Origin: an uncultured Gemmatimonadales bacterium
Lineage (GTDB): Bacteria; Gemmatimonadota; Gemmatimonadetes; Palauibacterales; Palauibacteraceae
Reading direction: 5' to 3'
DNA length: 64,000 bases
NCBI GenBank assembly: GCA_963783385.1
Contig: CAWANJ010000003.1
Coordinates: 256,001 to 320,000, forward strand
Positions within the stretch are counted from its first letter, which is position 1; every line of letters starts with the position of its first letter. The position numbers were made by a program, and so were the translations under genes. The notes beneath the pieces were generated by a model. That model was not told where the DNA came from and searched no databases. It saw only the letters and a program-made list of their open reading frames with translations. Below, one piece after another: positions 440 to 58,182 of this stretch.

Positions 440-579
440 GACGCTCCTCCCGTGTCCACCGGGGGCTGGATGCCCCCGTATAATTGTGGACGGGACGGCT
501 CACTCCGGCCGTCGGGAGGATCCGGAGCCCCGCGTGGGGCTCCGGTCGAGGCCGCTTGTGGGGAAATGCCCTCGCGCAA

Positions 580-2290
580 CTACTGCTGGCAGGGCGCGTT
601 CCGGTCGGGCACCGGGTGGTCCACCACCGGCCGGTGGTCCAGGTCCGCCACGTGCACGGCCACATCCGCCACCAGGTTGACCACCTTCGCCATGTGCGGG
701 TAGTCGATGTGCTCGGCTTCGTCGGTCACCTGGTGGTAGTCCGAGTGGAGCCCCGTGGTGAAGAAGGTGATCGGGATGCCGTAACGCGCGTAGGAGTAGT
801 GGTCGCTGCGGCAGTAGATGTTGGACGGGTGCCCGTTGGCGTCCATCGCGTAGTCGAACGTCAGGTCGTGCCCGTCCTCGGTGTTCACCTTCTCGATCAG
901 GTCTCCGAGCTCGGTGGACAGCCGGCGCGAGCCCACCAGCTGCACGTAGCTCGGGCTCCCGTGCAGCGGCTGGCCGTCCTTCGTGCGGCCCGTCTCGTCC
1001 GTGGCGTCGCCGCGGCCGACCATGTCCATGTTGAGCTGCGCCACGATCGAGTCCCGGGGGACGGTCGGATGGTCGGTGAAGTACCGCGAGCCGTACAGGC
1101 CCCTCCTCCTCGCCGACGTGCCACACGAAGAGGATCGAGCGCTTCGGGTGCGGGTCCATGGCCTCGATCTTCTGGGCGATCTCGAGGGCGGACACCGAGC
1201 CCGAGCCGTCGTCGTCGGCTCCGTTGTACGTGGAGTCCATCCGGTCCGGGTGGCTCTTCCGGTAGACGGCCAGCAGGGAGTCGACCTCCTCCTGCTGGGC
1301 CGGCGTGGTCCGCTTGCCGCCGTCATCGGCCCCCTCGGGACGCACGACGTGGTTGAAGATCATGATCGAGTCGTGGTCCACGGGCCGGCCCACGCCCAGG
1401 TGATCGTTGTGCGCCCCGATGGCCACGTACTCTCCCTTCAGCTTCGGGTCGCTGCCGGGCACGATGCCGACCACGTTGCGGGCCGGGTAGGGGACGGGCT
1501 CGAGCGAGTAGCGCACGTGGACCGCGGCCGATCCGCCCGCGGTGCCGGGGGACAGGCCCGCCAGGGGCGAGGAGAACATCTTGCCGGCGGCCGCCTCGCT
1601 CACCAGGAACACGGGCATCTGCTCCGAGCCCTGCGGCTGGTCGTCCACGAACATGCGCGGCCGCGTGAAGAAGGCGCGGAACCGGGCCGGCACGCTGTCC
1701 AGGGCGGCGACCGCGATCGCCGCGGCTCCCTCGATCGCCGGGGCGGCGCGGAACAGGCGGCGCAGCGACACGCCCGGCGCGACCCCGAACACCACGAGCT
1801 TGCCCCTGGCCTGGTCGGCGGTGATGGGATGCGAGGCGTCTCCCACCACGCCGCCGTACACGATCGGCAGGGATGCGGCGTCGAAGGAACGGGGCGTGAT
1901 CGGGACGAAGTCGTCGAGGAGCTTCAGCGGGCCGCCGTCCACCGTGAAGCTCGAGCTGTCGCTCAGGGCGCGCGTCTTGAGCGGGATCGTCTGGAAGTAG
2001 GTCCCGTCGTCCCCGGCGGGCACCAGGCCCATGCGCTCGATCTCGTGGGCGATGTAGTTCGTGCCCTTGACGTTGCCCAGTTCGCCCGTGCGGCGGCCCA
2101 GCATCGAGTCGTCGGAGAAGATGTAGAGGCGGGTCATGAGGTCCGCCGGCGTGATGGCGACCGTCGTGGGCTCGGGCGCGTGCTGGCGCGGCAGGCCGCG
2201 GTCGACCGGGAGGGCCGATTGGGCGGCCGCGGCGGCCGGCAGGAGCAGGGCGCAGACCGCAAGCGGGATCGGACGGGTGAGGCGTCGCAT
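580..2290 (-). CDS. Secreted M28 family metallopeptidase with PA-like insert (one frameshift near 1100)
   Basis: Signal peptide; zinc-ligand motifs GAHNDH, GADDDGSG, GEEE in ORF 500..2317. Continues in ORF 580..1326 with LNMDMVGR, RSDHY and DYHQVTD. Confidence 0.88.
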
Positions 2291-2400
2291 GGCCATCTCC
2301 GGGTGACGCGGAAACAAAGGAGTCGCGTCGCCGAATCTGGCGCGGGCCCGGGCCCGGGAAAAGGGCGTCCGCCCGGGGCGGCGCGCTCGTCACTCGAGGC

Positions 2401-2456: not shown

Positions 2457-2792
2457 ATGACCGAACCGATACCCGTCCTCAAGGGGACCCTGGACGTGCT
2501 GGTGTTGAAGGCGCTCAGCGGGGCGCCCATGCACGGCCTCGAGATCACGGATTGGCTGACTCGTCGCTCGGGCGGGGAGCTCAGCTTCGACGAGTCGGCC
2601 GTCTACCAGGCCCTGTACCGCATGGAGGGACGGGACCTCGTCGAGGCGGAGTGGGGCGTGAGCGACCACAACCGCAAGGCTCGCTACTACCGCATCACGA
2701 AGGCTGGCGAGCGCCACCTCGAGGAGGAGTCGCGACAGCTCGTCCGCTTCGGGGAGCTCGTGAAGACCATCCTCTCTCCCTCTCCCGCCTGA
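2457..2792 (+). CDS. PadR-family transcriptional regulator (short acidobacterial type)
   Basis: 111 aa; [45 protein letters not shown]. Confidence 0.93.
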
Positions 2793-5521
2793 TGCTCCGG
2801 CCCGGCGTCCGCCGGCTGTTCCGGCTGCGTCTCGGGCGCCGCGACGACGTCGAGCGCGAGACCGACAACGAGATCCGGGCGCACCTGGAGATGAGGGCCG
2901 AGGCGCTGGAGAGCCGAGGACTCTCGCCGGAGGAGGCCAGGGCGGAGGCGCGGCGCCGCTTCGGCGAGCTGGAATCCGCCCGGGACGAACTGGTGCGGGC
3001 CGCCCGGCGGCGGGAACGAAGGGTGAGGTGGCGGGACCGGCTGGACGGGGTGCGCCAGGACGTGCGGCACGCGTGGCGGTCGGTGAAGGGCGAGCCCGGC
3101 CTCGCGGCCGTGGTCGATCCTCATCATCGCGCTCGGCGTCGGCGCCAACGCGGCCATGTTCGGGATCCTGGACCACCTCCTGCTCGGCGGCCCGGCGCAC
3201 GTGGTCGACTCCGGCCGGGTCGTCCGTTTCTCCATCCATGCGACGGTGCCGGGCCAGGGCGAGGTGTCCGACAACACGTTCGGGTACGTCGCCTACGCGG
3301 CCCTGCGGGACCACGCACGCGGCCTGGACAGGGTCGCGGCCTACTCCGAGTGGGACGACGTCGTCGGGCAGGGCCGAGGACGCCCACCCCGTGCGCGTCG
3401 GTCACGCCACGGCCGGCTTCTTTCCGCTGCTCGGCGTCCAAGCGGCCGTGGGGAGGTTTTTCGGCCGGGCGGAGGACAGGCCGGGGGACGCCCGGCACGT
3501 GGCGGTGCTCGGGCACGAAGTCTGGCGGAGCCGCTTCGCGGGGGACTCCTCGGTCGTGGGCCGGACCGTGCGCATCGGTGGCGAGCCGTACACCGTCGTG
3601 GGCGTGGCGCCGGCCGGGTTCACCGGCGTGGCGCTGCAGCGCGTTGACGCCTGGCTCCCCATGTCGCTCGTCCATCCGTCGCCGGACTGGAGGACCTCCT
3701 GGCAGGCGCAGTGGCTCAAGATCGTGGCACGACTGGCGCCCGGCGTCACCAGGGAGCGCGGCGCCGCCGAGGCCACCCGGAGCCTTCGGGCCGCCTACCC
3801 CGGAACGGAGAAGTTCATCGAGCGCGCCGACCTCCACGCCGACCCGCTGTCCTACGACGATTCGGGCCACGAGGCCCGGGAAGTGGCCGTGTCGCGCTGG
3901 CTGTTCGCCGTGTCGCTCATCGTCCTCCTGGTGGCGTGCGCCAACGTGGCCAACCTGCTCCTGGCCCGCGCGCTCCGCCGCCGGCGCGAGGTCAGCCTCC
4001 GCGTGGCGCTCGGGATCTCGCGTTGGCGCCTCGTGCGGCTCCTGCTCGGAGAGAGCCTGGCGCTCGCGCTGCTGGGCGGCGTCGCCGCCCTGGCCGTCAT
4101 CCCGGTGGTAGGCCACGTGGTGCGCTCCGCGCTCCTTCCCACGGTCGCGTGGGGCGACGGTCTCGTGCGACGGAAGGGTCCTGGCCGTGGCGGCGGCCCT
4201 GACCCTGGCGACGGGGCTCGCGGCGGGCCTCCTGCCGGCCCTCCACGCGGGCCGGCACGATGTGATCGGATCCCTGCGGGCCGGCATGCGAGGAGAAGGG
4301 GCGGGGACGTCTCGGCTACGATCGGCTCTCGCGGTAGCCCAGGCGGCCCTCTCGGTGCTCCTCCTGGTGGGTGCCGGCCTGTTCATCCGGAGTCTCCATC
4401 ACGCGCGCGGCGATCGACCTGGGGTTCGAGCCCGAACGGGTGCTGATGGTCCGGCCCGACTGGTCGGTCCCCGGGCCGAGCCTCCGCTCCGACGCCGAGG
4501 AGCGGGACCGGCGTCGCGCCCGGCGGAGCGCGTTCTTCGCCGCCGCACTGGTCCGCGCCCGACGCCTGCCGCGAGGTCGAGCGGGCGGCGATCACCGTCG
4601 GTCTCCCGTTCCAGATGTGGTTCACGTTGCGGCTCCGGGTGCCCGGCCTCGACTCCATCCCGAAGCTCCCCGGGGGAGGGCCCTACATCCAGGCCGTGTC
4701 GCCCGGGTACTTCGCCACTATGGGCCTCTCCCTCCTCGAGGGCCGCGTCGTTCGGACCGTCGGACCACGAGGGCAGCGAGTCGGTGGCGGTGGTGAGCCG
4801 CACCATGGCGCGCACCCTGTGGCCCGGGGGCGAGGCGCATCGGGCGATGCCTGCTGATCGGACGGGCCGAGCGGCCTCCCTGCGCACGCGTGGTCGGGAT
4901 CGTCGAGGACGCCCACCGGAACGCCCTGCACGAGCGGCCTTCCATGCAGTACTACATCCCCCTCGGCCAGGAGCGGGGATTCGGCGGATCGGCGCTCGTG
5001 ATACGGCCGCGGGGCGATCCCGAGGCCTTGATCGGGCGTTTGCGCCGGAGGCTGGCGGGACTGGACCCGGAGGTGCTCTACCTTCGCATCGAGAGCCTGG
5101 AGAGCGTCATCGACCCCCACTACCGCCCGTGGCGACTGGGTGCGACGCTCATGGGTGCCTTCGGATCCTGGCCCTGCTCATCGCGGCCATGGGGCTGTAC
5201 AGCCTGGTGGCCTATACGGTCGCGAGTCGGCGCCACGAAGTCGGGATCCGGATGGCGCTGGGGGCCGGCCGCCTGGACATCCTCCGGTGGGTGCTACGGC
5301 GGGGCGTCCTCCTGGTCGCGTCCGGCGTCGCCATGGGCGCGCTGCTGGCGGCCGCGGCGGCTCCGCGCCTCGGCAGGCCTCCTGTTCGAGGAGTCACCGC
5401 TGGACCCGGCGGTGTACGCGGGGGTGGCGGCCCTCCTCTGGCCGTGGCGGTGGCGGCCTGCCTTGTGCCGGCCGGCAGCGCCGCGAAGCTGGACCCGGTC
5501 CGGGCGCTGCGGGCCGACTGA
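2792..5521 (+). CDS. ADOP-like duplicated ABC permease with N-terminal permease-prefix domain (several frameshifts)
   Basis: TGATG-coupled to padR. Prefix [15 protein letters not shown]...ARRRFG; [16 protein letters not shown]; C-terminus [13 protein letters not shown]. Pieces lie in ORFs 2447..4111, 3156..3647, 3028..4446, 4187..5521 and 4890..6923. Confidence 0.85.
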
Positions 5522-5546
5522 CGTCGGCGGCCGGGACGGCGACTCC

Positions 5547-5572
5547 GGCCGCGCGCGCCCCCGCGCGCGGCC
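5547..5572. terminator. GC-rich hairpin between convergent genes
   Basis: GGCCGCGCGCG-CCCC-CGCGCGCGGCC, an 11-bp stem with no U-tract. Confidence 0.4.
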
Positions 5573-5606
5573 ACGGCGACCAGCCGTCGGGCCCGCGACC
5601 GATCCG

Positions 5607-6928
5607 TCACATCTCATTCGGGGGCCCCGGCCTGGGCAATACGATCCTCGCCACGCAGCCCTGGCCTCCGTCGCGGTTCCGCAGCGTGAGGCTGCCGCCG
5701 TGCGCCTCGGCGATCTGGCGGCTGAGGGCCAACCCGATGCCCGATCCGTCCGGCTTCGTGGTGAAGAAGGGCACGAACAGGTTGGCGGTGTCCGAGATCC
5801 CCGGTCCCTCGTCCTCGACGAGCACCTCGACGTAGAGGGCGGTGACTCGCCACCGGACGCGCACGCCGCCCCCCGTCTCCGAGACGGCGTCGACCGCGTT
5901 GTCCAGCAGGTTGATGAGCATCTGGTCCAGCTGATCCGAGTCGGCCCGAATGACGACGTCGGGGCCCGGCTCCACTCGCACCGGGAGCCGGGTCTCGAGC
6001 TTCGCCACGCGGCCGACCCATGTCTCAATGTCCACCGGATTCAGCTCCGGTGGCGGCAGGCGCGCCAGCCGGGCGTAGGAGGACATGAACCGGCCCAGGG
6101 CGGCGGCCCGGCCCGAGATGATCCCGAGTCCCTGCTCCACGTCCGCGGGCTCGAGCGCCGCCCCGCCGTCTCCGAGGCCGTCCCGCAGGCTCTCGGCGAT
6201 GGAGCGGATGGGGGCGAGCGAGTTGTTGATCTCGTGCCCCAGCACCCGAACCAGTCGGCGCCACGCCTTGCGCTCCTCCTCGCGGAGGACCCGGCTCAGG
6301 TCCGACAGGACCAGCAACGTCTGGGGCCGGCCCTCGTGGCGGAGGCCGGTGCGCCGGATCTCCCAGCGGCCCGAGCCGCCCGGGAAGGTCATCTCGACCA
6401 CCCGCGGCGTGTCGCCGGACAGGAAGGGCGCCAGTCCGACGGTGCTGGCGGGACGGCCCGTGAGCGCCCGGGCCGGCCGGTCCAGGAGCTGGGCCCCGGC
6501 CCGGTTGACCAGCCACAGACGGTCGTCCGCGTCGAAGGCGAACACGGCCACGTCGATCTCCTCGAGCACGCCCCGCAGGAGGGCCGTGGCCTCCAGCGTC
6601 CCGATGCGTTCGGTTCGCAGCGTCTCGCCGAGCGCGTTCACCTCGTGCGAGACGAGGCCGAGCGCCCGGTCGGTGCCCTCGGCCCGAACGCGCATCGAGT
6701 AGTCCCCCCGCGGAAGGCGGCCAGCACGTTGGCCAGGGTCTGGAGGGGCCGGACGAGCTCGTGGTGGAGGACGGCGACGAGGGCGATCCAGGTGCCGACG
6801 AGGAGAATGGACGGGACGACCCGCGCCCACGTCGGCCACGGCGCCCGCCACAGGAACAGGAGAGCCAGCAGAACGGCGGGCAGGCCCGCGACGAGGGCGA
6901 GGGCGGGCAAGCGGCGCTGGTAGCTCAC
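5607..6928 (-). CDS. Sensor histidine kinase (2 close TM helices, HAMP/PAS-like region, NtrY-like HisKA + HATPase), frameshift near 6705
   Basis: N-terminus in ORF 6638..6928. H-box RVLGHEINNSLAPI, N-box NLLDNA, DEGPG and FFTTKPDGSGIGL in ORF 5607..6851. Confidence 0.9.
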
Positions 6929-6938
6929 CGCCCGTCTC

Positions 6939-8304
6939 TCAGGGCTCGAGGCCGTAGCGGTCCAGCCGCCGGTACAGGGCGCTGCGGCTGAGTCCCAGCT
7001 CCCCGGCCGCCCGGCTCACGTTGCCCTCGTGGCGGCGGAGCGCCTTCTGAATGAGGATGCGCTCGGCCTCCTCGAGCGTGAGGCCCTCGAGCCCGGGCGC
7101 GCCCTCGCCCGGGGCCCGGAGGCCGAGGTGGGCGACCTCGATACGCCGGCCCTCCGACATGAGGAGCGCGCGCTCGATCACGTGTTCGAGCTCCCGGACG
7201 TTGCCCTTCCACGGGTGGGCGCGCAGCGCCTCCATGGCATTGGCTGCCAGCTCGGGCACGGGCTCGTCCCGGCGCCGGGCCTCGCGGCGCAGGAAGTGCG
7301 CGGCCAGGGCGGGGATGTCCTCGGGCCGACGCCGCAGCGGGGGCACGTGGATCTCCACCGTGTTGAGCCGATAGAAGAGGTCTTCTCGGAAGTTCCCCGC
7401 CGCCACGGCCGCCGCCAGGTCCGCGTTGGTGGCGGCGATCACGCGCACGTCGGCCGTGCGGGTCCGCGAGGAACCCAGGCGCCGAAACTCCCCCGTCTCC
7501 AGCGCCCGGAGGAGCTTGGCCTGCTGGGCGGCCGGCATGGTACCAATCTCGTCCAGGAACAGAGTGGCGCGATCGGCCATCTCGAGGTAGCCGATCCGGT
7601 CGGCCTTGGCGTCCGTGAAGGCGCCGCGGACGTGTCCGAACAGCTCGCTCTCGAACAGGCCCTCCGGAACGGCGCCGGCGTTGAGGGTCACCAGCGGCCG
7701 ACCCGAGCGCGGCGAGCGAGCGTGGAGCCAGCGGGCTACCACCTCCTTCCCCGTCCCGGGCTCCCCGGTGATGAGCACGTTGGCGTCCGAGGGGCCGGCG
7801 CGCTCGATGAGCTGCAGGACCGGCTGCATGGTGCGCGACTCGGCGACCAGCTCCGGCAGGTCGCCCTCTCGCGCCTCGCGCTCCACCTCCAGCCGCTCGA
7901 CGCGGCGCAGGGCCCGGGTGAGCTCGACCTGGTTCTGGAGGGTGGCCAGCAGGCGCTCGTTGTCCCAGGGCTTCTCGACGTAGTCGCGGGCGCCGCGGCG
8001 CATGGCCTCCACCGCCCCCTCCACGCTGCCCCAGGCCGTCATCACCACCACGGAGAGCGTCGGATCCAGGCCGCGGACCGCCGACAGGAGGTCGAGGCCC
8101 TCCTTCCCCGAGGTGGTGTCGCGCGTGTAGTTGAGGTCGAGGAGGGCGAGGTCCAGCTCGCGGGCCTCGACGGTGCGCAGGACGGCCGCGGGCGACGTGG
8201 CCGTCTCGATCTCGTAGCCGTGCCCCTTGAGCAGGAGACGCAGCGCCTCCAGCACGTCGCTTCTGGTCGTCGGCGACCAGGATGCGGGGCGGCGGCTCGC
8301 TCAC
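6939..8304 (-). CDS. Sigma-54-dependent response regulator (REC-AAA+-Fis HTH, NtrC family), frameshift near 8260
   Basis: GTG 8304 overlaps the ATPase stop. RILVADD, phosphoacceptor LLDLNY, GEPGTGKE, ESELFGHVRGAFTDA, FREDLFYRLN, WKGNVREL and a C-terminal HTH. Confidence 0.93.
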
Positions 8305-8972
8305 GCCGGCGGGTCCACGATCCATCCGTCTTCCAGCTGGATGACGCGGTCGCTGCAGGCCGCCACCGCGGGATCGTGGGTCACCTGGATGATGGTCGTT
8401 CCCTCGCGGTTGAGGCCCGAGAGCAGGTCCATGATCTTCTCGCCCTGGCTCGAGTGCAGGCTCCCGGTGGGCTCGTCGGCCAGGATGAGGCTCGGCTCGG
8501 CGATCACGGCCCGGGCCACGGCCACGATCTGCTGCTGCCCGCCCGAGAGCTGGGACGGGAACAGGTCCTTCTTCCCGACGATGTGGAACTGGTCCAGCAT
8601 GTCGGCCACCCGCGCCTCGCGCTCGGCGCGCGGGACGTCCCGGTAGGAGAGGGGGATCTCCAGGTTCTCGGCGACCGTGAGGTCGTCCAGCAGGTGGTAC
8701 TGCTGGAATACGAATCCGATGTGCTCCCTGTGGAGGCGGCTCCGCTCCTTGTTGGAGAGCTCGTGCACGGGCGAGTCGAGGAAGCGGTACTCCCCCCGGT
8801 ACGCGCCGTCCAGCATGCCGAGGATGCCCAGCAGGGTCGACTTCCCGGCCCCGGAGGGCCCCATGATGGTCACGAAGTCGCCGGCCCGGACGTCCAGGTC
8901 GATGCGGCGGAGCACGAAGGTCTCCCCGCCCTTGTAGCCGTAGGACTTCTCGAGGTTGCGTAGCTGGATCAA
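8301..8972 (-). CDS. ABC transporter ATP-binding protein (MacB/LolD-like), second ATPase of the unit
   Basis: GPSGAGKST, LSGGQQQ, LILADEPTGSLHS, VTHD; 223 aa. Confidence 0.93.
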   Translation of the reverse strand: MIQLRNLEKSYGYKGGETFVLRRIDLDVRAGDFVTIMGPSGAGKSTLLGILGMLDGAYRGEYRFLDSPVHELSNKERSRLHREHIGFVFQQYHLLDDLTVAENLEIPLSYRDVPRAEREARVADMLDQFHIVGKKDLFPSQLSGGQQQIVAVARAVIAEPSLILADEPTGSLHSSQGEKIMDLLSGLNREGTTIIQVTHDPAVAACSDRVIQLEDGWIVDPPA

Positions 8973-9019
8973 GGAAGAGCGCTCCGTTTCATGTGGACGG
9001 TCCGCGATGACGCCGGCAT
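8969..9019 (-). other. Bridging mini-ORF (16 aa, MPASSRTVHMKRSALP)
   Basis: ATG directly follows the permease TAG; its TGA overlaps the TTG start of the ATPase (TTGA). Confidence 0.3.
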
Positions 9020-11473
9020 CTACCGATCACGATCCCCGGGCGGCCGACCCTCGGCCCGCAGCGCCACGAGCGGGTCGACCCGTGTGGCCCGCAGCGCCGG
9101 GACCAGGCAGGCCGACAGGGTGGCCACGAGCGTCACGCCGAGCGCGACCCCCACGGTCCGCGGATCCGTCGGCGCCACGCCGAACAGCATGCTCCTCAGA
9201 TAACGGTTCAGAACGACCACGCCGATCATCCCAAGGATAGCCCCCCCCGCCGTCAGGCGCAGACCCCGGAGCAACACGCTGCGCAGGATGGCCCCCCGGC
9301 CGGCCCCGAGTGCCATGCGAATTCCGAACTCCCGCGTGCGTTCCGACACCGCATACTCGATCACCCCGTACATCCCGACCAGCACCAGGATCAGCGCGAC
9401 GCCCGCCACGCTCCCGAGCAGCACCGCCCGGAATCGCTGGGGGGCCACGCCCCGGGCGATGTCGGCGGCCAGCGTCGAGATCTCCGGGACGGGTTGCCGC
9501 GGGTCCACCGAGCGGATCGCCCGGCGCAGCGGTCCAGCGAGCACGCCCGCTCCGAGCCCGGAGCGCACGAGAAAGACGGCCTGGTGGCCCATCGTGATCT
9601 CCGGGACGGTCGACGGTCGCTGCCTGAACGGTATGTAGAAGCCCGGTCCCGGATCCCTGGCCAGGCCGCCGCCGCGGATGTCGGCCGCCACGCCCACCAC
9701 GGTGAGCCAGGCGTCGTCGCCCTCCTCGAAGCGGATCCGTCGACCGATCGGATCGCGGCCCGGGAAGGCCTCCCGCGCCATGGCCTCGTCGATGATCGCC
9801 ACCCTGGTGGCATCGCGGTCGTCACCCTCCCGGAACGAGCGGCCCCGGAGCATCGGGATCCCCACCGTCCGGAAGTAGTCGGGACTGACGACCCCGTACT
9901 GCGCCTGTCGCGCAGCGGTCTGTTCGACACCCTCGACCACGTAGTCGCGGATCGCGTGCCCGCGGTCGATGGGCAGGTTGTTGGCGAGCGCCGCGTGCTC
10001 CACGCCCGGCACGGCGCGCAGCCGCTCCAGGGTCCGGCGATAGAAGGCATCGAGCTCCGTCACGCCCTCGAAGCGCGTGGGAGGGATCCGGACCGCCACC
10101 GTCAGCACGTCCCTCGTGCGGAAGCCGGGGTCCCGCCCCGTCAGCAGGAGAAAGCTGCGCACCAGGAGCCCGGCCCCTACCAGGAGGACCAGGCCGAGGG
10201 CGATCTCCGTGATCGCGAGGCCTTCGCTCACCCTGTGGTGGCGGCCGGAGAGCGAGGGGCTGCGCCCGCCTTCCGCGAGATCCTCGTGCAGCGATCGCCG
10301 AGCGGTGAGGACGGCCGGGACGATCCCGAACAGGCAGCCGGTGGCGATCGACGTGCCCAGGGCGAAGAGCAGCACGGTGAGGTCCACGTGGACCTCGCCC
10401 AGGCGGGCCACGCCCGCCGGCGCCGCGTGCAGCAGCAGTCCGAGAGCCGGATGCACGACGAGCAGGCCCGCCAGGCCACCCAGCAGACACAGGACCAGGC
10501 TCTCCGTCATCAGGCGCTGGATCAGGCGGCGCCGGCCGGCACCCAGCGCCGCACGGATGGCCATCTCCCGGCGCCGCGCGTTGGCCCGCGCGAGCAGGAG
10601 GTTGGCGACGTTGACGCAGGCGATGAGCAGGAGAAGGGCCGTCGCGAGCTGTAGCAGGATCAGCGCCGTGCGGATGCCCCTCACCATCTCCGACTTGAGA
10701 GTGGCGAGCCGAAGTCTCCAGCGTTCGTTCGAGGCGCTCTCGGGGTGCCGGCTCCTGAACATCGAGAACTCATGGTCGAGAGCGGCCTGCGCCTGCTGGA
10801 CCGAGACACCGGGCTTCAATCGCGCGAGAGGGATGACCCACATCATCCGACCTTCGTCGTCCCGTGGCCGCAGGGCGAGCGGCGTCCAGATCCCCGGATC
10901 GTCGACGCGAGGCCCGAGCTGACGGAATCCGCGGGCGGTGACCCCGACGACCCGATGCGGCCTGTCGTTGAGCCGCACCGTTCGCCCCAGGATGTCGCGG
11001 CGCCCCGCGTACCGCGTCTGCCACACCCGGTAGCTGAGGATGGCCGCGGCAGGTGCGCCCGGCCGGGCGTCGGCGGCCGTGAAGTCACGGCCGATCGCCA
11101 TCCCCGCGCCCAGGAGCCCGAGGAGATCGGGCGTGACGCGCGATCCCGCCAGCTGGTAGGCGCGGTCCCCGTCGGTGATGGCGAACGGCTCGGGGGAGTA
11201 TGCGGCCACCCCCTCGAAGATCGTCGAACGGCGCTCCAGGCCCATCGGAATCTCGGCCGGGCTCCACGGCGCCTGTCCCAGGACCACCAGCTCCCCGGAT
11301 TGGGGGTAGGGCAGCGGCCGCAGGAGCACGGCGTCGACGACGGTGAACAGGGCCGTCGTCGCGCCGATTCCCAGGGCCAGGGTGAGGACGGCGATGACCG
11401 TGTAGCCAGGGCTGCGGCGGAGCTGCCGCAGCGCGAAGCGGAGGTCCTGGAGGAGGGCGTCCATGCGTGTCAC
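9020..11473 (-). CDS. ADOP-like duplicated MacB/FtsX ABC permease (array member 14, intact)
   Basis: 817 aa; [31 protein letters not shown], two FtsX domains, [13 protein letters not shown]. Confidence 0.93.
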
Positions 11474-11553
11474 CGCCTCGGCAGCGTGCGGTCCGACCGC
11501 GTCGGGGCGTTCCCGATCGATCTCCGAGCGGCCGTCGCTCCCTCCTCACTCAT
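11470..11553 (-). other. Bridging mini-ORF (27 aa, [27 protein letters not shown])
   Basis: Starts within ATGAGTGA at the end of member 13 and ends in a GTGA overlap with the start of member 14. Confidence 0.35.
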
Positions 11554-14008
11554 GACGGAGCGCCTCCATGGGGTCGATTCGGGTCGCACGGCGGATCGGC
11601 ACCCAGCAGGCCAGGGTCGCGGTCGCCGCCAGTACGAGCGCCGCGGCCACGAACGGCGCGGGATCCAGCGGCGAGATCTCGTACAGCTGGCCGCGCAGGA
11701 AGCGGCTGAGGGCCGCGGCCATCAGGAGGCCGGCGCCGAGCCCCAGGAGCGTGAAGCGAAGACCCTCGGCCAGCACGAGGCGGACGAGGTCTCCGCGGCG
11801 GGCACCGATCGCCATGCGGAGCCCCATCTCCCGTGTCCGTCCGGCCACGGAATAGGCCAGGATGCCGTAGAGCCCGACCGCCGCCAGCAACAGGGCGAGG
11901 ATCCCGAACGTCCCCAGGAGGACGGTGCTGAAGCGGTCCCGGGCCGTCACCCGGCTCAGTCGCTCGTCCATGGTGCGGACGTCCCACAGCGGGAGGCCGG
12001 GGTCGAGGTCCCGGACTACCGAGCGGGCGCTCGCCGCGAGCGCGTGCGGATCACCGGCCGACCGCGCGACCAGGTAGTTGGAGCGGTAGGAGAACTGGGG
12101 GTACGCCAGGTAGACGCCCGGCCGGGCCGGTTCCCGGAGGCTTCCTCCCACCACGTCACCGGCGACGCCCACCACTTCGGCCCACCCCTCCGAGGCATCC
12201 CACACGCTGAGCCGGATGCGCTGTCCGACGGGGTCGCGCCCGGGCCAGTATCGGTCGGCGGCGGCCCGGGTCACGATGGCCACCCGGGGCGTCCCTTCGC
12301 GGTCGCCCTCCTCGATGGAGCGACCCTCGACGATGGGGATCCCCATCGCGGCGAAGTAGCCGGCCGACACCATGTTCAGCCAGACCTCGTGCCCCTGGCG
12401 GTCGGACGTCGTCTCGCCCCGGATGCCCATGCGCACGTGGTCGCATCCGCCGCCCGCGACCGCGTCCGCGTGGGCCGGGAGGCAGTTGGCGACGGCGGCC
12501 GTCTCCACGCCCGGGCGCGCCTGCAGCCGGTCGACCGCCTCGGTGAACAGGGACGCGGCCTCGGCCCCCGAGTACCCCTGGCGGGGCACGTTCACCCACG
12601 CCGTGAACACGTGGTCGGGCCGGAAGCCCGGCGGCGTCGCGCGGAGCTGACCCAGGCTCCGGAGGAGCAGGCCCGCCCCGATGAGCAGCACCGTCGCCAC
12701 GGCGACCTCGGCGACCACGAGCACGGCGCGCGGTCCGCCCGCCCGGCGTCCGAGACCCGCGGACCCGAGCATGGTGGGGGCGTCGTGCCGGGTCGCCGCG
12801 ATCGCCGGCGCGGCCCCGAAGGCGAGGGCGGCCACGACGGCGACCAGGAAGTTGAAGGCGAGGACCGGTTCGGACAGGCCGAGCCCCTCCAGGGTCCCCG
12901 GGGCGGCGAGCGCCGCAGGTCTCAGACCGCGCACCAGGGACAGCCCGCCCCAGGCCACGAGGAGGGCGGCCCCACCGCCCAGGACGCCCAGCACCGCGGA
13001 CTCCGTCAGGAGCAGGCGGAGCAGGCGCGCGCGGCTGGCACCGAGCGCGACGCGCAGACCCAGTTCGCGGGACCTTCGAACGCCCCGCGCCAGGAAGAGG
13101 TTGGCCAGGTTGCTGCACGCGATCAGGAGCACGCAGCCGACCGCGGCCAGCAGGATGAGGAGCATGCGTCCGAGCGATCGGTCGATGCCGATGACTGCGA
13201 GGGATCTGGCGGCGAGGCCGACCTGCACGGGGCCGAAGGCGTCGGTGAACGGAATCCGCTCCGACACCGCCCGCGCGGCCGATGCGAGCTCCGCGGTCGC
13301 CAGGGGCGCCTCCGCCCGCGGGACCCGCGCGACCACCGAATGCCAGAAGGATAGCCGCTGCTGGAGGCGGTTCCTGAACACCAGCGTCGGCGCCATGGTG
13401 ATGGGCACCCACACGTCGGCCTCGCCGGAGAGGCCCGAGAACCCGGCCGGCATGATGCCGACGATCGTGAGCCGCACGCCGTTCAGGGTCACGGGCCGGC
13501 CCAGCGCGCCCGGGTCGCCGCCGAAGGCCGTGTGCCACAGGCCATCGCCGATGACGGCCACCGCCCCGGCGCCCGGCGCGGCGTCCTCGTCCGGGGCGAA
13601 CGTGCGACCGTGCGCGGCCGGCACCCCCAGCACTCCGAAGTAACTGGCCGACACGAGCTCGACCCGGGCCCGCTCGGGGTGGCCGGCGGCCGACAGGTTG
13701 TAGGTCAGCGCGTCCGGCGTGTAGGCGGCGACCGTGATGTCGCGGGCCGCATCCCGGAACGCCTCGTACTCCGGATAGGACCAGTAGCGCATCGAGTCGA
13801 CGGTCCCGCTCGGCTGCGTCAGCGTCGGCATCACGACCTGGAGCTGGTCGCTGTCCGGATAGGGCGGCCGGGCCAGCAGCACGGCGTACACGGCGGAAAA
13901 CACGGCCGTGTTGGCCCCGATCCCGAGCGCGAGGGTGAGCACGGCGACGACGACGAAGCCGGGCCTACGGGCCATCTGGCGGAGCGCGAAGCGGAGGTCC
14001 TGGATCAT
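11546..14008 (-). CDS. ADOP-like ABC permease (member 13, intact)
   Basis: 820 aa; same architecture, ends [13 protein letters not shown]. Confidence 0.93.
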   Translation of the reverse strand: MIQDLRFALRQMARRPGFVVVAVLTLALGIGANTAVFSAVYAVLLARPPYPDSDQLQVVMPTLTQPSGTVDSMRYWSYPEYEAFRDAARDITVAAYTPDALTYNLSAAGHPERARVELVSASYFGVLGVPAAHGRTFAPDEDAAPGAGAVAVIGDGLWHTAFGGDPGALGRPVTLNGVRLTIVGIMPAGFSGLSGEADVWVPITMAPTLVFRNRLQQRLSFWHSVVARVPRAEAPLATAELASAARAVSERIPFTDAFGPVQVGLAARSLAVIGIDRSLGRMLLILLAAVGCVLLIACSNLANLFLARGVRRSRELGLRVALGASRARLLRLLLTESAVLGVLGGGAALLVAWGGLSLVRGLRPAALAAPGTLEGLGLSEPVLAFNFLVAVVAALAFGAAPAIAATRHDAPTMLGSAGLGRRAGGPRAVLVVAEVAVATVLLIGAGLLLRSLGQLRATPPGFRPDHVFTAWVNVPRQGYSGAEAASLFTEAVDRLQARPGVETAAVANCLPAHADAVAGGGCDHVRMGIRGETTSDRQGHEVWLNMVSAGYFAAMGIPIVEGRSIEEGDREGTPRVAIVTRAAADRYWPGRDPVGQRIRLSVWDASEGWAEVVGVAGDVVGGSLREPARPGVYLAYPQFSYRSNYLVARSAGDPHALAASARSVVRDLDPGLPLWDVRTMDERLSRVTARDRFSTVLLGTFGILALLLAAVGLYGILAYSVAGRTREMGLRMAIGARRGDLVRLVLAEGLRFTLLGLGAGLLMAAALSRFLRGQLYEISPLDPAPFVAAALVLAATATLACWVPIRRATRIDPMEALRHE

Positions 14009-14064
14009 CTCAGTCTCCGGGCGTGGGCTGGGGGTCGGTGCGAGGTCCGCGGCCGGGCCATCAT
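14005..14064 (-). other. Bridging mini-ORF (19 aa, MMARPRTSHRPPAHARRLR)
   Basis: ATGA overlaps at both ends (14064-14061 and 14008-14005). Confidence 0.35.
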
Positions 14065-16483
14065 CCGTCCCTGAGAGCGTGGATCGGGTCGACCCGCGTG
14101 GCCCGCCGCGCGGGGATCCAGCAGGCCAACGCGGCTACGGCGGCGAGCGCCGCCGGCACCAGCAGGAAGGTGACCGGATCCAGGGGGGCCACGCCGTACA
14201 GGAGCCCGGAGAGCACCCGCACGGACAGCAGGGCCCCGACCAGGCCGATCGCGATTCCCGCCAGGACCGGGATCATCCCGAGCCGGAGCACGAAGCGCAG
14301 CGTGGTGGCGCGGTCCGCTCCCAGCACCATGCGGATGCCCAGCTCGCGTAGCCGGCGGGTCACGGCGTAGGACAGCACCCCGTAGATACCGATCAGGGCG
14401 AGGAGCAGCGCCAGACCGGCGAACGTGGCCAGGGTCATGACGTCGAAGCGCGGGCGGAGGATGGACGTCTCGACGATCTCCCGCATGCTCCGCAGCGAGT
14501 AGATCGGGAGCGTCGGGTCCAGGGCGCCCACGGCGGCGCGCACTGCGCCGGCCAGGGCCGTCGGGTCTCCGTCCGTGCGCAGGGCGAGCGCCATGCCGTG
14601 ACGGGGACTCTGCAGGTACGCTGAGGTAGGCGTGCGGGATAGCCCGGGCGATCGAGGCTCTCCGTCCGAACGCTCCCGACCACGCCGACGATCGTGTACC
14701 AGCGGTTCCCGTCGAAGGAGATGCGGTCGCCAATCGGGTCGTGCTCGCCCCAGTACCGCCGCAGCCATGGCGCGGTCGATCACGGCCACGGGCCGGTCTC
14801 CCGGGCCGTCCCGCGCGTCCGGGAGCCGTCCCCGCACCAGCGGGATCCCGAGCGATCGGAAGTAGTCGCCTCCCTCGGAGCACACGACCGCGTCCTGGAC
14901 GACGTCCGGGCCGGGCGCGGGCCTTCCCTGGATCCGGAAGGAGAGGTAGCTGACCCGCTCTGTAGCGGCAGGTCGGTGGTGGCGCCGGCGTCGGTGACGC
15001 CCGGGAGCCTCCCGACCCGAGCCAGCAGGCTGGTCCAGAACTCGCGGACTCGCGGATCGTCCGGGTAGCGGCCGTCCGGCAGCGACACCCGGGCCGTCAG
15101 GACGCCCGCGCGCGCGGAAGCCGGGATCGACGCCCTGGAGATGGGCGAAGCTTCGGATCAGGAGCCCGGCGCCCGACCAGGAGGACGAGGGCGATGGCCA
15201 CCTGTGCGGCCACGAGGCCCCGGTCGAGGACGCCACGTCCGATCGGGTCCCGCCGTGCGGGCCCCGTCGACCAGGCTCCCCGCGCAGGTCGGTCCGGGTG
15301 AGCCGCAGCGCCGGAACGAGGCCGAACAGCGCGGTCGTGACGAGCGCCGCGCCGAGGGCGAACAGGAGCACCGCGCCGTCCAGGCGGACCTCGCTCAGCC
15401 GCGGCAGCGCGCCGGGGTCGAGCCCCACCAGCGCCCGCGTGGCCCAGAAGGTCAGCAGGATGCCGAGTCCGGCGCCCAGCACCGAGAGCACGAGGCTCTC
15501 GGCCAGGAGCTGGCCGATCGAGGCGGCGGCGCGGCGCCCCGAGGGCGGCGCGCAGCGCCAGCTCGCGGCGCGCGGGCGGCGCCGCGGGCCAGGAGGAGGT
15601 TGGCGACATTGGCGCACGCGATGAGCAGGACCAGGCCCACGGCCCCGAGGAGCACGAGCAGGGCCGGGCGCACGTCGCCCACGATGCGCTCCCGGAGCGG
15701 GGTGACGGCCACGCTCCAGCCGGTGTTGGTGGCGGGGTACTGCCGCTCGAGACGGCGGCCAATGGCGGTCATGTCGGCCCGGCCCGCCTCGAGGGTGATG
15801 CCCGGCGCCAGGCGTCCCACCACGCCCAGGAAGTCGCTGCGCCGACCCTGGCCGGGGGAGCCGGGCCGGGGCGCCACCGGGATCCACGCCTGCGCCCAGG
15901 AGGGGAACTGGAAGCCGGGCGCCGTGATCCCGACCACAGTGTAAGGCTCCCCGTCCAGGGTGACCGCGCGCCCGATCACGTCCGGGTCGCCGCCGAAGCG
16001 GTCCTTCCACAGCGAGCGCCCCAGGACCACGACCTTGCCGGCTCCGGCCCGATCCTCCTCCGGCGTGAACCCGCGGCCGGGAGACGGACCCACGCCCAGG
16101 GTGCGGAAGAAGTCGGAGGTGACGCGGGCCGCGATGAGCCGCTCCGGCGGCCGTCCCTCGCTGCCGGCCAGGTTGAGGCTGGCGCCGGCGAAGGCCGTCA
16201 TGCCGGAGAAGGAGCGACTCTGCGCCTTCCAGTCCAGGAAGTCGGGCACCGAGGCGGCCTCGTTCCCGATCCCCTCCTTGTGGCCCTGGAGGAGGACGAG
16301 TCGGCTCGCCTCGGGGTAGGGCAGCGGCCGGAGCAGCACGGCGTCCACCACGCTGAACATGGCCGTGTTGGCGCCGATGCCCAGTCCCAGGGTGAGGAGC
16401 ACGACGGCGGTGAAGCCGGGATGGCTCCGCAGCTGACGGAGGGCGTAGCGCAGGTCCTGCTTCAGTGCGTCCAGCACGGTCAT
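14061..16483 (-). CDS. ADOP-like ABC permease (member 12, several frameshifts)
   Basis: [18 protein letters not shown] in ORF 15452..16816; C-terminus ATRVDPIHALRDG in ORF 14061..16010. Confidence 0.88.
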
Positions 16484-18921
16484 TCCTCTCTGAGGGCGGC
16501 GGCGGGGTCGACGGAAGCGGCGCGGCGAGCGGGGAGCCAGGAGGCCACGGCTCCGACGGTCACCACGATGCCGACGGCGAGGACCGTGGTGCCCGCGTCG
16601 TGCGTGCTTACGCCGAACATCAGGCCGCCGACGAAGCGCGTCGCCGGAATCGAGGCGAGGACACCCGCCCCGGCGCCGACGAGCACCGGAGCCGAGCCCC
16701 GGGCCGCCACGGCGGCCAGCACGCCGCGCGGCGTGGCTCCCAGTGCAATGCGGATCCCGACCTCGCGGGTCCGCCGGGCGACGGCGTATGAGACCGTCGC
16801 CCACACGCCCAGGCACGCGAGGATGAGTCCCGCGGTCGAGAACAGGCTCAGCAGGAAGACTACGAACCGGTGACGGGCCAGCCCCGCGCCCAGCACCTCA
16901 CGCATCGTGCGCACCTCGTAGAGCGGAAGCGTCGGGTCCAACGCCGCCAGGCGGGCCCGAACGGCGGCTGTCAGATCGCCAGGAGGTCCTTCGCTCCGGA
17001 GCACGAGGGTCATGGTTCGTTCCGGTTGCTGCGCGTGCGGCACGTACAGGACGGGAGGGGCTTCCGCGGCCAGTGACTGGCGAACGTCGCCGACGACGCC
17101 GACCACGGTCCGCACGTGTCCTCTCCTTCCTGGCCGAGGCGGGGTAGCCGAATACGCGCGCCCAGCACTCGGCCATCCCGCAGGTACCGCCTGGCGAAAG
17201 CCTCGTTCACGACTGCCACTCGCGGGGCATCGGCATCATCGCTCTCCTGGAGGAGCCGACCTTGCAGGAGCGGCACCCGAAGCGTCCCGAAGAAGCCCGG
17301 CGTGACCGGTCGGTATTGGAGCGACGGCTCTGGAGCGCCCTCGGCGCGCTCGGTGGCCTTCGACGGTGAATGACACCTCCCACGCGCCGCCGTCCAGGGG
17401 GAGAATGGCCGTGGCGCCTGCTGAACGGACGCCTGGCAATGCGCGGAGATCCCCGAGCAGGTGGTCGTAGAAGCCCCGTACCTGCTGCGGGCTCCGTGTA
17501 GGCCGCGGACGGGAGTCCCACTCTCGCTGTCAGGGTCCGACTCGGATCCAGCCCCGGATCGACGTCCCGCAGAATGCTCCAGGCTGCGGACGACCAGGCC
17601 CGGCTGCGATCAGCAGGACCAGGGTCACAGCGACCTGTCCCGCCACGAGGGTGTCGCGGGCTCGCCTTCGACCTCGGGGCTCCCCGGTTCGGGGACCACC
17701 CAGGGCCAGGCTGCTCCCGAGACGACGGGCGCCTCCCAGGATGGCAGGCACGGCCCCCGCCGACACGCCGGTGATCAGCGCCAGCCCGAATCCGAACGCC
17801 AGGACCCGCAGGTCGGGTCGAGTCGCTGCGAGGCGGGGAAGGTCCGCCGGCGCCAGGCGGGCCAGCGCGCTGACGCCCCACCAGCCGAGCGAGGCACCCG
17901 CCGCGCCCCCGAGGAAGGCCAGAGTCAGGTTCTCCAGCATGAGCTGCCGGAGCAGACGGCCCCGGCTAGCGCCCAGCGATGCACGGACCGCCATCTCCCG
18001 GCTACGCGTGGTGGCGCGCACCAGCGACACGTTGGCGAGATTCGCGACGGCCACCAGCAGCAGCAGCGCCACGCCGGCCAGGAGGGCGAGGAGCGCGGGT
18101 CGCACGTCTCCGAGGAGGTCTTGCCGCAGACCCACGGCCGTGAGTGCGAAAGCCGTGTCCGTGTAGAACGTGGCATGTTCGCGGCGAAACGCCGGTACGA
18201 GGGAGCGGAGGTCACGCTGGAGCGCGGCCGGCCGCAGGCCTGGACGCATCCGGCCTACGACCCTCAGATAGCGGTCTCCGCGTTCCCCCGGTGTCAGCAT
18301 CCCCTGTGTGAAGCGTAGCGAGGTCCAGATTTCGGCCTCCGGGGGATAGTCGAAGCCCTCGGGCATGACGCCGACCACCCGGCGCGCCCGGCCGTCGAGG
18401 GTCAGGGTTCGTCCTATGATGGCGGGATCGGCTCCGAATCGGACGCGCCACACCCGATTCGAGAGGACGACGAGGGGTTCCGCCCCCGGGGCGCGGTCTC
18501 GCGGGGACGGGACACGGCCGAGGTCGGGAGTGACGCCGAGCGTCGCGAAGAAGCCCGGTGTCACCCACGCGCCGGTCAGACGCGCGGCTTCGTTCTCTCC
18601 CAGGAGCGTGTAGCTGTCGGGAATGAACCCTCCCATCGAGGCGAACGCGTGGGAGCGCGTCTGCAGGTCGACGAACTCGTCGGCCGAGAGCGACAGGTTT
18701 TCGAGGCCGGAGGTCGGGAACGCCGTGTTGATCCGCACCAGCCGGTCCGCGTGGGGGAAGGGCAGAGGCCGGAGGAGGACGGCATCCACGAGTCCGAAGA
18801 CGGCCGCGGCCACGCCCAGCGTGAGCGCCAGGATACCGGCCCAGAGGGCCGCGTACACGGGGTCTCGAACGAGCCGATAGAGCGCCCCACGCGCGTCGAG
18901 CGCCAGGCCTCGCACGGTCAC
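16480..18921 (-). CDS. ADOP-like ABC permease (member 11, frameshifts, divergent N-terminus)
   Basis: ORFs 17530..18921, 17010..17276 and 16480..17115; ends ASVDPAAALREE. Confidence 0.88.
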
Positions 18922-32810: not shown

Positions 32811-32921
32811 TCACTCCTCCGGCGACGGGCACATGGGCTCGGTCCCCGCGGCCGGCCGGGCCGGCGCACGGAAGATCGCGAGGTTGCGGCGAGCGCGGGC
32901 CGACCGTCCGACGGCTGTCAC
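32811..32921 (-). pseudogene. Collapsed permease relic / bridging mini-ORF (36 aa)
   Basis: [36 protein letters not shown] resembles the family tail PARRAARxDPMxALREE*; GTGA overlaps at both ends. Confidence 0.55.
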
Positions 32922-37838: not shown

Positions 37839-37928
37839 TCAGGTCTCCCGGACCAGGCAGGGGACGCGGTGAACCCGGACGACCGTGAGCGTCGGGGCGT
37901 CGAACCGGAGCCGCCGCGCCTCACTCAT
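37839..37928 (-). other. Bridging mini-ORF (29 aa, MSEARRLRFDAPTLTVVRVHRVPCLVRET)
   Basis: Starts within ATGAGTGA at the end of member 2 and stops 2 nt before the GTG of member 3. Confidence 0.35.
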
Positions 37929-45239: not shown

Positions 45240-45254
45240 GCAACGGTCGTACCA
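45240..45254 (-). promoter_or_regulatory. Sigma-54 -24/-12 promoter
   Basis: Minus strand reads TGGTACGACCGTTGC against consensus TGGCACG-N4-TTGC, with exact GG-N10-GC spacing. Confidence 0.82.
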
Positions 45255-45282
45255 TGCGCTCATAGCATCGTACGATATTGTG

Positions 45283-45295
45283 TTACAGTGAGTTG
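45283..45295. promoter_or_regulatory. Possible IHF site
   Basis: AT-rich island between the promoter and the activator boxes; TTACAGTGAGTTG partly matches WATCAR-N4-TTR. Confidence 0.4.
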
Positions 45296-45330
45296 GCGGT
45301 GTCGCACGATCCGGCGCCCGGCGGCTGGAG

Positions 45331-45366
45331 TGTCCGATTCCGGGACCCGGTGTCCGGAAACGAACA
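45331..45366. promoter_or_regulatory. Tandem upstream activator sequences for a sigma-54 activator
   Basis: TGTCCG-ATTC-CGGGAC and TGTCCG-GAAA-CGAACA are imperfect palindromes with starts 20 bp apart, about 80-110 bp upstream of the -24 box. Confidence 0.68.
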
Positions 45367-45582
45367 CCGGCGGGTCCCCTCCGGGAGTGGGCCGCGGGCC
45401 GGATCGAGTGGCCGGCCCGGGCCGGGCGCGCCGCCGGGTGGCAGGTTCACGGCCGCGGTCGATATCTTGGTGACTCGACGCCTCGCCTGGCCGACTCTCG
45501 CAGGATCGTCCGACCGTGCCGGGGCGAGCTCCCAGGTGATGCTCCCCTCGATGTCGATGAGATTCCCCTGGAAGACGACGCC

Positions 45583-58165: not shown

Positions 58166-58182
<17 letters not shown>

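Follow-up and report, generated by a model that had tools for sequence, protein, structure and literature searches.

Positions 5607 to 8304 of the window (the whole stretch analysed, 64,000 nt of an uncultured Gemmatimonadales bacterium, contig CAWANJ010000003.1, with a G+C content of about 73 %) hold an NtrC-type response regulator and a histidine kinase, the final two genes of a minus-strand operon of about 40 kb. Open reading frame (ORF) and family scans showed that the co-directional row consists of a periplasmic adaptor, ATP-binding cassette (ABC) ATPase 1, 14 permeases of the ADOP family, ATPase 2, the regulator and the kinase, with short intergenic gaps throughout. The GTG start of the regulator is overlapped by the stop of ATPase 2 (GTGA), and 10 nt separate the regulator stop from the kinase GTG. 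It is highly probable, at roughly 85 % by our own estimate, that this pair is a dedicated, self-activating regulator of the ADOP efflux battery.

Gene order and promoter across phyla

The kinase has at least 8000 protein relatives, the best 120 of which are 362–517 aa long and 61–100 % identical to it, and at least 596 kinase loci were confirmed in species-representative genomes (one genome per species). The best 80 of these loci were retrieved with 10-kb flanks, and the window proteins were mapped onto them by tblastn. About 23 of the 80 fall in Gemmatimonadota, about 41 in Acidobacteriota and 11 in Verrucomicrobiota (mostly Opitutaceae), the rest being three Myxococcota (including the isolate Nannocystis radixulma, L072), one Methylomirabilota and one Steroidobacteraceae; the phyla are those that we take the family names to belong to. 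In 24 loci the sequence ahead of the regulator was shorter than 3 kb; once these were dropped, 56 were available for the analysis of synteny.

The NtrC-type regulator was found directly before the kinase in 54 of the 56 loci. An ADOP, ATPase or adaptor gene was present within ±10 kb in 48 loci by loose criteria and in 45 by strict same-strand criteria, the strict counts being 37 for ADOP, 28 for the ATPase-2 type, 22 for the adaptor and 18 for the ATPase-1 type. As far as sequence comparison can tell, the kinase–regulator pair travels with ADOP-type pumps in several soil phyla. The layout of the window, adaptor–ATPase–permeases–ATPase–regulator–kinase, also occurs elsewhere, and in Opitutaceae the ATPase, regulator and kinase form a separate upstream unit, after which come a sigma-54 promoter and the ADOP operon. 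ATPase 2 was rejected as the constant partner of the pair, being found in 28/56 loci versus 37/56 for ADOP and directly before the regulator in 12 loci versus 17. Two forms of the Opitutaceae unit ahead of the ADOP operon were recorded, one of regulator and kinase with an adaptor, an ATPase and a single MacB-type permease (L062, 4503–11323) and one with an ATPase-2 and a TolC-like gene (L075, 6363–11320).

In the window, the sequence TGGTACGACCGTTGC at 45240–45254 on the minus strand is the sole match to TGGCAC-N5-TTGC with at most one mismatch in the 64 kb. It scores 9/10 and sits about 135 nt ahead of the adaptor ATG. Extra sigma-54 promoters within the array were rejected, since no further -24/-12 element with at most one mismatch was found there and matches with two mismatches were fewer than expected (38 versus 42.7). 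The centre of a 38-bp palindrome at 45330–45367 lies about 95 nt ahead of the -24 element, and the palindrome's pattern GTGTYCG-N20-30-CGRACAC matches once in the window versus 0.03 times expected. The stretch between palindrome and promoter is A+T-rich, and a similar spacer is seen in L002, L012, L059 and L068.

Both elements recur in relatives. The 5' part of the adaptor gene is visible in 23 of the retrieved loci, of which two lay too close to a contig edge and 21 were scored. A -24/-12 match of at least 9/10 was found within 500 nt before the adaptor gene in 11 of these 21, with 8/10 in four and lower scores in six; the background for a match of at least 9/10 was 100 in 4000 random 700-nt stretches from these loci (2.5 %). 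The outer palindrome pattern was matched at 15 sites, spread over 14 of the 80 loci, versus 0–7 per shuffle, and the composite form reads TGTYCGG-N3-TGGGAY-N5-RTCCCR-N3-CCGRACA. In L002, L012, L041, L049, L063, L071, L072 and L074 the site has the inner core, TGGGAY-N5-RTCCCR, and the first ABC gene begins no more than about 250 nt downstream of it; the site in L044 precedes a 10/10 sigma-54 promoter; five remaining sites look like chance matches. A three-part variant of the motif in Opitutaceae gave seven matches in 1.24 Mb, all seven about 100–125 nt upstream of sigma-54 promoters.

The palindrome at 45330–45367 is presumably where the NtrC-type regulator binds. Recurrence of promoter and palindrome upstream of the ABC operon provides strong comparative evidence that the regulator's predicted target is this operon itself, and the circuit in the window would be self-amplifying because the regulator and kinase genes lie inside the target operon. 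L006, a locus with no ABC genes nearby, also has a palindrome that shares these outer arms (TGTTCG...CGGACA), at 4384–4420 and directly before the regulator gene; the best -24/-12 match after it scores only 4/10. This site suggests autoregulation even where the pair stands alone.

The regulator has the set of domains expected of the NtrC family, namely REC, AAA+ with a GAFTGA-type loop and a C-terminal Fis-type helix-turn-helix. Its Pfam matches are Sigma54_activat (218 bits), Response_reg, HTH_8 and AAA_lid_14, all above their cutoffs. The sigma-54 contact loop reads GAFTDA, within GHVRGAFTDA (about 7600–7630, minus strand), in place of the textbook GAFTGA; this form or a one-residue variant (GSFTDA, GAYTDA) was found in 72/72 orthologues, exactly as GAFTDA in 68/72. 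A frame break lies near 8262, between ...RILVADDQ and SDVLEALRLL.... The original prediction, made from the letters of the window, had coupled a battery of permeases to the kinase and to a sigma-54 activator driving the permeases' own promoter. The domains REC, Sigma54_activat and HTH_8 bear out the partner, the 14 ADOP permeases, two ATPases and HlyD adaptor upstream on the same strand bear out the battery, its link to the pair is upheld by synteny across phyla (45–48/56 loci), and the promoter claim is well founded in the -24/-12 element and conserved enhancer-like palindrome preceding the first gene.

Operon layout and the pump

All 14 array permeases were mapped with a profile hidden Markov model (HMM) built from the alignment of permease 10 (A3). 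The features of the operon, from its promoter to its end, are as follows.

45330–45367, no strand: enhancer-like palindrome, GTGTCCG...CGAACAC, with an inner CGGACA/TCCCGG-type repeat
45256–45300, minus: A+T-rich stretch separating the enhancer from the promoter, perhaps a DNA-bending site of the integration host factor (IHF) type, from reading of the sequence
45240–45254, minus: sigma-54 type -24/-12 element TGGTACGACCGTTGC, from a motif scan
43681–45105, minus: first operon gene, a periplasmic adaptor (membrane fusion protein) of the HlyD family; Pfam HlyD_3 and HlyD_D23
42852–43637, minus: ABC ATPase 1 (MacB/LolD/FtsE-like); Pfam ABC_tran, 117.8 bits
40317–42692, minus: ADOP permease 1, intact; TIGR03434, 786 bits; HMM 14–806
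37921–40314, minus: ADOP permease 2, intact; TIGR03434, 896.6 bits; HMM 2–806 in a single frame
35337–37836, minus: ADOP permease 3, one frame break near 37369–37385; HMM 2–154 and 154–806 in different frames; Pfam
32918–35344, minus: ADOP permease 4, intact; TIGR03434, 855.3 bits
28717–32832, minus: ADOP permeases 5 and 6 in a single open frame (1371 aa); four MacB_PCD and three FtsX stretches
30388–32805, minus: the permease 5 part, without the last ~23 profile positions and a stop; HMM pieces
28720–30354, minus: the permease 6 part, without profile positions 168–457; HMM pieces
26317–28733, minus: ADOP permease 7 in five pieces (at least four frame breaks); HMM mapping
23869–26313, minus: ADOP permease 8, intact; TIGR03434, 782.3 bits
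21374–23845, minus: ADOP permease 9, full length in four pieces; HMM 2–524, 521–568, 610–723 and 743–806, in alternating frames
18918–21377, minus: ADOP permease 10, intact; TIGR03434, 943.8 bits
16480–18921, minus: ADOP permease 11, at least two frame breaks; Pfam and HMM mapping
14061–16474, minus: ADOP permease 12, at least three frame breaks; Pfam and HMM mapping
11546–14008, minus: ADOP permease 13, intact; TIGR03434, 832 bits
9020–11473, minus: ADOP permease 14, intact; TIGR03434, 864.7 bits
8301–8972, minus: ABC ATPase 2; Pfam ABC_tran, 107.2 bits
6939–8304, minus: NtrC-family sigma-54-dependent response regulator; REC, AAA+, HTH_8
5607–6928, minus: histidine kinase; transmembrane helix (TM) 1 about 6–28, TM2 about 33–56, HAMP about 56–108, PAS 127–210, DHp with H232, catalytic domain 297–432
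5547–5572, no strand: G+C hairpin with a perfect stem of 11 bp, a possible two-way terminator between the kinase gene and a convergent ADOP gene

The arms of this hairpin on the minus strand are GGCCGCGCGCG-GGGG-CGCGCGCGGCC, and the fold z-score is only -0.78 for the whole 98-nt stretch. A T-tract scan of 5300–9100 found none beside the hairpin, and scans of the same region for intrinsic terminators and sigma-70 promoters found nothing relevant.

MacB_PCD and FtsX domains occur twice each in every array permease. On TIGR03434, a model spanning 803 positions with a cutoff of 622.3, the seven intact ones reach 782–944 bits, which places them in the ADOP family. The array permeases are most conserved at the N-terminal helix and TM1 and least conserved in the periplasmic domains, identity between paralogues being 62 % in the TM1 region versus 29–33 % in the periplasmic domains. 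The conserved TM1 and divergent periplasmic domains therefore point to a common docking surface and make a common substrate unlikely.

The two ATPases are 48 % identical, and Walker A, the signature, the Walker B glutamate and the H-loop are kept in both. The best NCBIfam matches of ATPase 1 are DarD, LolD and the MacB nucleotide-binding domain, each below its cutoff. Given two ATPase paralogues and internally duplicated permeases, a heterodimeric motor with one ATPase for each permease half would fit. An OEP domain was not found among the window ORFs scanned, in which the permeases and the HlyD adaptor are present; TolC-like OEP genes lie between the permeases and the regulator in L036, L051, L054, L060, L075 and L076. 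The pump is predicted to work in the periplasm because of the adaptor, the large periplasmic domains and the TolC-like partners in relatives.

Kinase architecture and the source of its signal

The kinase gene was read through two frames. The first starts at GTG 6928, runs for 74 codons and translates to VSYQRRLPALALVAGLPAVLLALLFLWRAPWPTWARVVPSILLVGTWIALVAVLHHELVRPLQTLANVLAAFRGG, which comprises two hydrophobic stretches joined by RAPWPTWAR and then the start of HAMP. The switch into the frame of ORF 5607–6851, which reads onward DYSMRVRAEG..., falls inside a run of six G (6704–6709) that is one base short. The read-through is justified because the relative P0005, an intact 440-aa protein 100 % identical over 99 % of the kinase query, is continuous over the break position, reading ...AAFRGGDYSMRV...; the window's own gene call for the kinase, P0006 (362 aa), begins past the break.

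Kyte–Doolittle hydrophobic segments span residues 6–30 and 35–56 of the corrected protein, and RAPWPTWAR (residues 28–36) is the linker between the membrane helices. In the AlphaFold2 model (82-sequence alignment, mean predicted local distance difference test score, pLDDT, 80.4), helices cover residues 3–28 and 33–73. There is no room for a periplasmic domain, since only residues 29–32 between these helices are modelled as non-helical. Beyond the membrane, the model has a second HAMP helix (89–124), a PAS fold (127–210; block-mean pLDDT 87–96 up to about residue 210), DHp helices (211–288) and a catalytic domain (297–432). The catalytic motifs H232, N box, DxGxG, FVPFFTTK and GxGxGL are invariant in the 82-sequence alignment. 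The Pfam PAS_8 match on the kinase, at 21.3 bits, falls just short of its cutoff of 21.8, and precomputed PAS Pfam matches are present on many homologues.

The same build is found family-wide. The HAMP landmark R[PSH][LI]QT was located in 86 of 95 homologues of 425–480 aa, always with fewer than 100 residues before it (86/86). By strict thresholds, two hydrophobic cores 1–16 residues apart (median 7) precede it in 65/86, the remaining 21 having one core (19), three cores (1) or none (1). Hydropathy and the AlphaFold2 model, together with this survey, thus agree with the earlier claim of two TM helices joined by about nine residues without a periplasmic domain, and no real extracellular domain emerged from the topology of the frameshift-corrected kinase. 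The accompanying label 'sensor-less' stands for the extracytoplasmic side and is overstated for the protein as a whole, because the kinase carries a well-conserved cytoplasmic PAS domain at 127–210.

The circuit that we favour, highly probable apart from its input, would run as follows. The phosphorylated regulator would bind the palindrome at 45330–45367 and activate the sigma-54 polymerase at the -24/-12 element (45240–45254), giving one transcript of about 39.6 kb from adaptor through kinase and so amplifying its own switch. The duplicated permeases would probably share the two ATPases and act as interchangeable heads of a MacAB–TolC-like pump. The kinase would use its membrane hairpin and HAMP, its PAS domain or both to read how the transporter is working, with the conserved membrane part of the permeases or the shared ATPases as candidate contacts. 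Such a reading of transporter state seems the most likely input because the kinase is blind to the periplasm and one PAS pocket is unlikely to fit the substrates of 14 permeases. The contrast of conserved TM1 and divergent periplasmic domains in the permeases, the variable helical half of PAS, the Opitutaceae layout of a sensing unit ahead of an induced pump, and the precedents of BceS with BceAB and DcuS with DctA speak for it as well. Judged on sequence and analogy, Bce-like perception through the transporter is a plausible hypothesis, to be held tentatively at a little below even odds. A more specific version, in which one HAMP–PAS kinase of diderm soil bacteria monitors the shared motor (the two ATPases and the TM1 region) and turns 'any head busy' into self-amplifying sigma-54 expression of the whole battery, is rather unlikely; such a motor-monitoring circuit would be a many-inputs, one-output form of Bce-like signalling that arose independently outside Firmicutes.

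Several observations weigh against the favoured circuit or its proposed input. In 8/56 loci the pair occurs without an ABC gene within 10 kb, among unrelated neighbours such as a type II secretion/type IV pilus ATPase or DNA polymerase I, and L002, L012, L022 and L073 have an adaptor, two ATPases, regulator and kinase with no permease nearby. Synteny is not proof of signalling from permease to kinase, because any dedicated regulator would show synteny and a shared promoter. The single transcript of about 40 kb is assumed, both regulator and kinase are frame-broken in the window, and no direct evidence of kinase–transporter contact was obtained. None of nine longer homologues (771–2200 aa, E ≤ 1e-30) carries FtsX, MacB_PCD or ABC_tran, a blank that is weak evidence; seven of them fuse regulator and kinase, and the other two have a peptidase or an alpha-galactosidase attached. 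For the single permeases of L007, L032, L044, L071 and L080, the best matches in the window are permeases 10 or 2, with an identity of only 32–39 % (permease 10 being the best match in L007 and L044). These matches are little above those to other paralogues and no orthologue is prominent, so that a conserved 'sensor permease' was rejected.

Conservation within the kinase also counts on that side. Scored as columns conserved at ≥90 % in 88 sequences that share under 80 % identity with the query, PAS is well conserved (35/102), and the membrane parts are the least conserved in the protein (TM1 3/19, TM2 4/19, outside loop 0/9); HAMP has 22/53, DHp 41/82 and the catalytic domain 66/140. A complex prediction for permease 10 (819 aa) with two copies of kinase residues 1–88, run without controls, gave a score of 0.00 and a mark of 0.32 and speaks neither for nor against binding. 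The prediction has low power because in the BceAB–S complex, as excerpts of the structural report put it, the protein contact is small (about 460 Å2) and largely lipid-mediated (PMC10314905).

Operons without a permease were also observed on the short contigs L034 and L058. Permease-less operons may encode motor and switch together for ADOPs located elsewhere, which may explain the 'orphan' look of ADOPs.

The strongest competitor keeps the circuit and lets the kinase sense alone: PAS would bind a metabolite, cofactor or imported compound, or the hairpin and HAMP would feel a general perturbation of membrane or envelope, and the pump would have no role in perception and merely remove the cause. 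This is a real possibility, with the odds leaning against it; what is left of the odds goes to other modes of input. The PAS fold is confidently predicted and conserved, with invariant or near-invariant charged or aromatic residues in its sheet (R176, R188, W189, R192 and R197), but its helical half is poorly conserved (5/33 columns versus 14/35 and 8/16 in the strands) and no cofactor motif was identified in it. The ligand pocket of a PAS domain is usually walled by this helical half, whose variability is more in keeping with a relay or contact role than with a fixed ligand. Among solved structures, the nearest architectures are those of kinases with a PAS domain (WalK/VicK, ThkA, LOV–FixL chimeras), together with ZraS, homologues are labelled NtrY in JGI annotations, and the pair stands alone in the eight loci noted above. 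A single promoter for 14 permeases would fit a generic stress signal, yet a periplasm-blind kinase would then govern a pump with large, divergent periplasmic domains, and autonomous sensing sits poorly with the link to type VII ABC genes across several phyla.

Frame breaks, known systems and neighbouring genes

Of the frame breaks, at least 13 fall in permeases 3, 7, 9, 11 and 12, one in the regulator and one in the kinase, and the convergent ADOP gene (3087–5518, plus strand) lies in five pieces with at least four; we estimate a density of about 0.45 per kb. Were the breaks in regulator, kinase and six permease genes real, the module would be decaying and its switch dead in this genome, regardless of its role elsewhere. 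Their number favours such decay, as does the fact that no break except that of the kinase falls in a homopolymer of six or more, on which ground a homopolymer origin of all breaks was rejected. Decay is nonetheless quite improbable: the intact, 100 % identical kinase P0005 occurs on other contigs, the distribution of the breaks is roughly that of random indels, 7/14 array permeases are clean, and the 417-kb contig would fit error-prone long-read assembly. Most breaks are probably assembly errors, given that identical kinase copy, the near-random spread and the contig.

The resemblance to Bce modules is partial. Relatives of Bce include BraSR–BraDE/VraDE and GraXSR–VraFG. In Mascher's intramembrane-sensing class the cytoplasmic part of the kinase is reportedly HAMP–DHp–CA only. 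The window kinase shares with this group two membrane helices with a minimal outside loop followed by HAMP, and genetic coupling to a type VII (FtsX/MacB-superfamily) ABC transporter whose own promoter would be activated; Opitutaceae relatives, with a separate 'ABC plus two-component' unit upstream of the induced pump operon, recall Bra/Vra. BceS, which according to extracts of PMC4513084 signals through BceAB by flux sensing, is absent among the solved-structure sequence matches to the kinase at E ≤ 1e-10. The window kinase differs in being about 440 aa long with an extra sensory domain (PAS), and the regulator is NtrC-type and sigma-54 dependent instead of OmpR-type. Each permease is a duplicated ADOP with 8 helices and two periplasmic domains, whereas BceB has 10 helices and one such domain, the 10 helices in the solved BceAB–S complex being assigned to BceB in the sections consulted of PMC10314905. 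Two distinct ATPases and a HlyD adaptor, a TolC-like channel in relatives, as in diderm hosts, and up to 14 permeases per switch set the window module further apart. As a Bce-like module, the form in which it had been cast at the outset, the system thus fails most of the defining features: PAS is present, the regulator is NtrC-type and the permease is ADOP, not BceB.

A further parallel for the kinase is DcuS of Escherichia coli, likewise a membrane kinase with a cytoplasmic PAS domain. Its state is set by contact with a transporter (DctA/DcuB), DctA serving as co-sensor via the PASc domain according to parts of two reports (PMC3892338, PMC8307970). PAS and co-sensing by a transporter are therefore compatible. 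DcuS differs in having a periplasmic ligand-binding PAS and a CitB-type regulator, and its partner DctA is a secondary carrier instead of an ABC pump. On the pump side, MacAB–TolC shares the MacB_PCD and FtsX permease, the HlyD-family adaptor, the MacB/LolD-like ATPase and, in related loci, TolC-like genes. MacB, in contrast, fuses ATPase to permease and forms a homodimer, whereas the window has a battery of internally duplicated permeases and separate ATPase paralogues.

The permease family is the same as that of the PadR-coupled orphan ADOPs (TIGR03434, first noted in Acidobacteria), from which the array differs in its sigma-54 two-component switch and its own ATPases and adaptor. A PadR-family gene (2457–2792, plus strand) followed by a fifteenth ADOP permease (3087–5518, plus strand), convergent to the kinase gene, was observed in the window and is the classical 'PadR plus orphan ADOP' arrangement. 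Because this ordinary pair adjoins the array, the host genome would use two regulatory modes for ADOPs.

NtrY/NtrX, AtoS/AtoC, ZraS/ZraR and WalK/VicK share with the window pair the order HAMP–PAS–DHp–CA and an NtrC-type partner, and differ in genomic context. The kinases of these systems have periplasmic or multi-helix sensor parts. No NCBIfam equivalog (AtoS, ZraS, PrsK) reaches its cutoff on the kinase, the scores being far below it (AtoS 106 versus 646, ZraS 86 versus 479), and the regulator is below the cutoff of every model among the best 25 of 52 matches (PrsR 361 versus 503, NtrC 360 versus 559, with AtoC, ZraR and NtrX also short). That the pair is a mere neighbour regulating, for example, nitrogen or carbon metabolism, with the array otherwise controlled, draws on these best-matching names (AtoS and ZraS for the kinase; PrsR, NtrC, AtoC and ZraR for the regulator) and on the PadR repressors paired with ADOP genes elsewhere and once in the window, and is very improbable in view of the low scores, the synteny kept in 45–48/56 loci, the overlap of ATPase 2 stop and regulator start, and the location of sigma-54 promoter and palindrome, which is exactly upstream of the ABC operon at many loci and, in Opitutaceae, immediately behind the kinase gene.

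ADOP permeases rank with the largest paralogous families of Acidobacteria and neighbours. A 42-kb cluster of ten ADOP paralogues, its role given as unknown, is described for Psychroflexus torquis in a portion of PMC3914696. Arrays of ADOP paralogues with unknown substrate are thus on record, and sigma-54 two-component control of them is apparently undescribed; in the literature searched, with subscription journals mostly outside its reach, we found no description of the module, nor of MacB, sigma-54, histidine kinase and FtsX together. A dedicated switch offers an experimental handle, as a promoter reporter can screen for inducers and hence for likely pump substrates. If the transporter is the sensor, 'need-based' signalling would reach beyond the Bce modules of Firmicutes into sigma-54 circuits of several Gram-negative phyla and would show how one kinase integrates many permeases; if it is not, the pair would still belong to an undescribed, widespread family of efflux regulators of soil bacteria.

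Several neighbouring genes in the window have no evident tie to the kinase–regulator–ADOP module. They lie at 500–2317 (minus), 45583–46938 (plus), 46996–50925 (minus), 52182–55430 (plus), 55618–58182 (plus) and 58314–59831 (plus). The neighbouring products comprise two BNR/Sortilin-repeat proteins, an alpha/beta hydrolase within an over-long ORF, a pyruvate phosphate dikinase, a Sir2-family protein, an M28 peptidase and an amino-acid permease divergent from the operon promoter.

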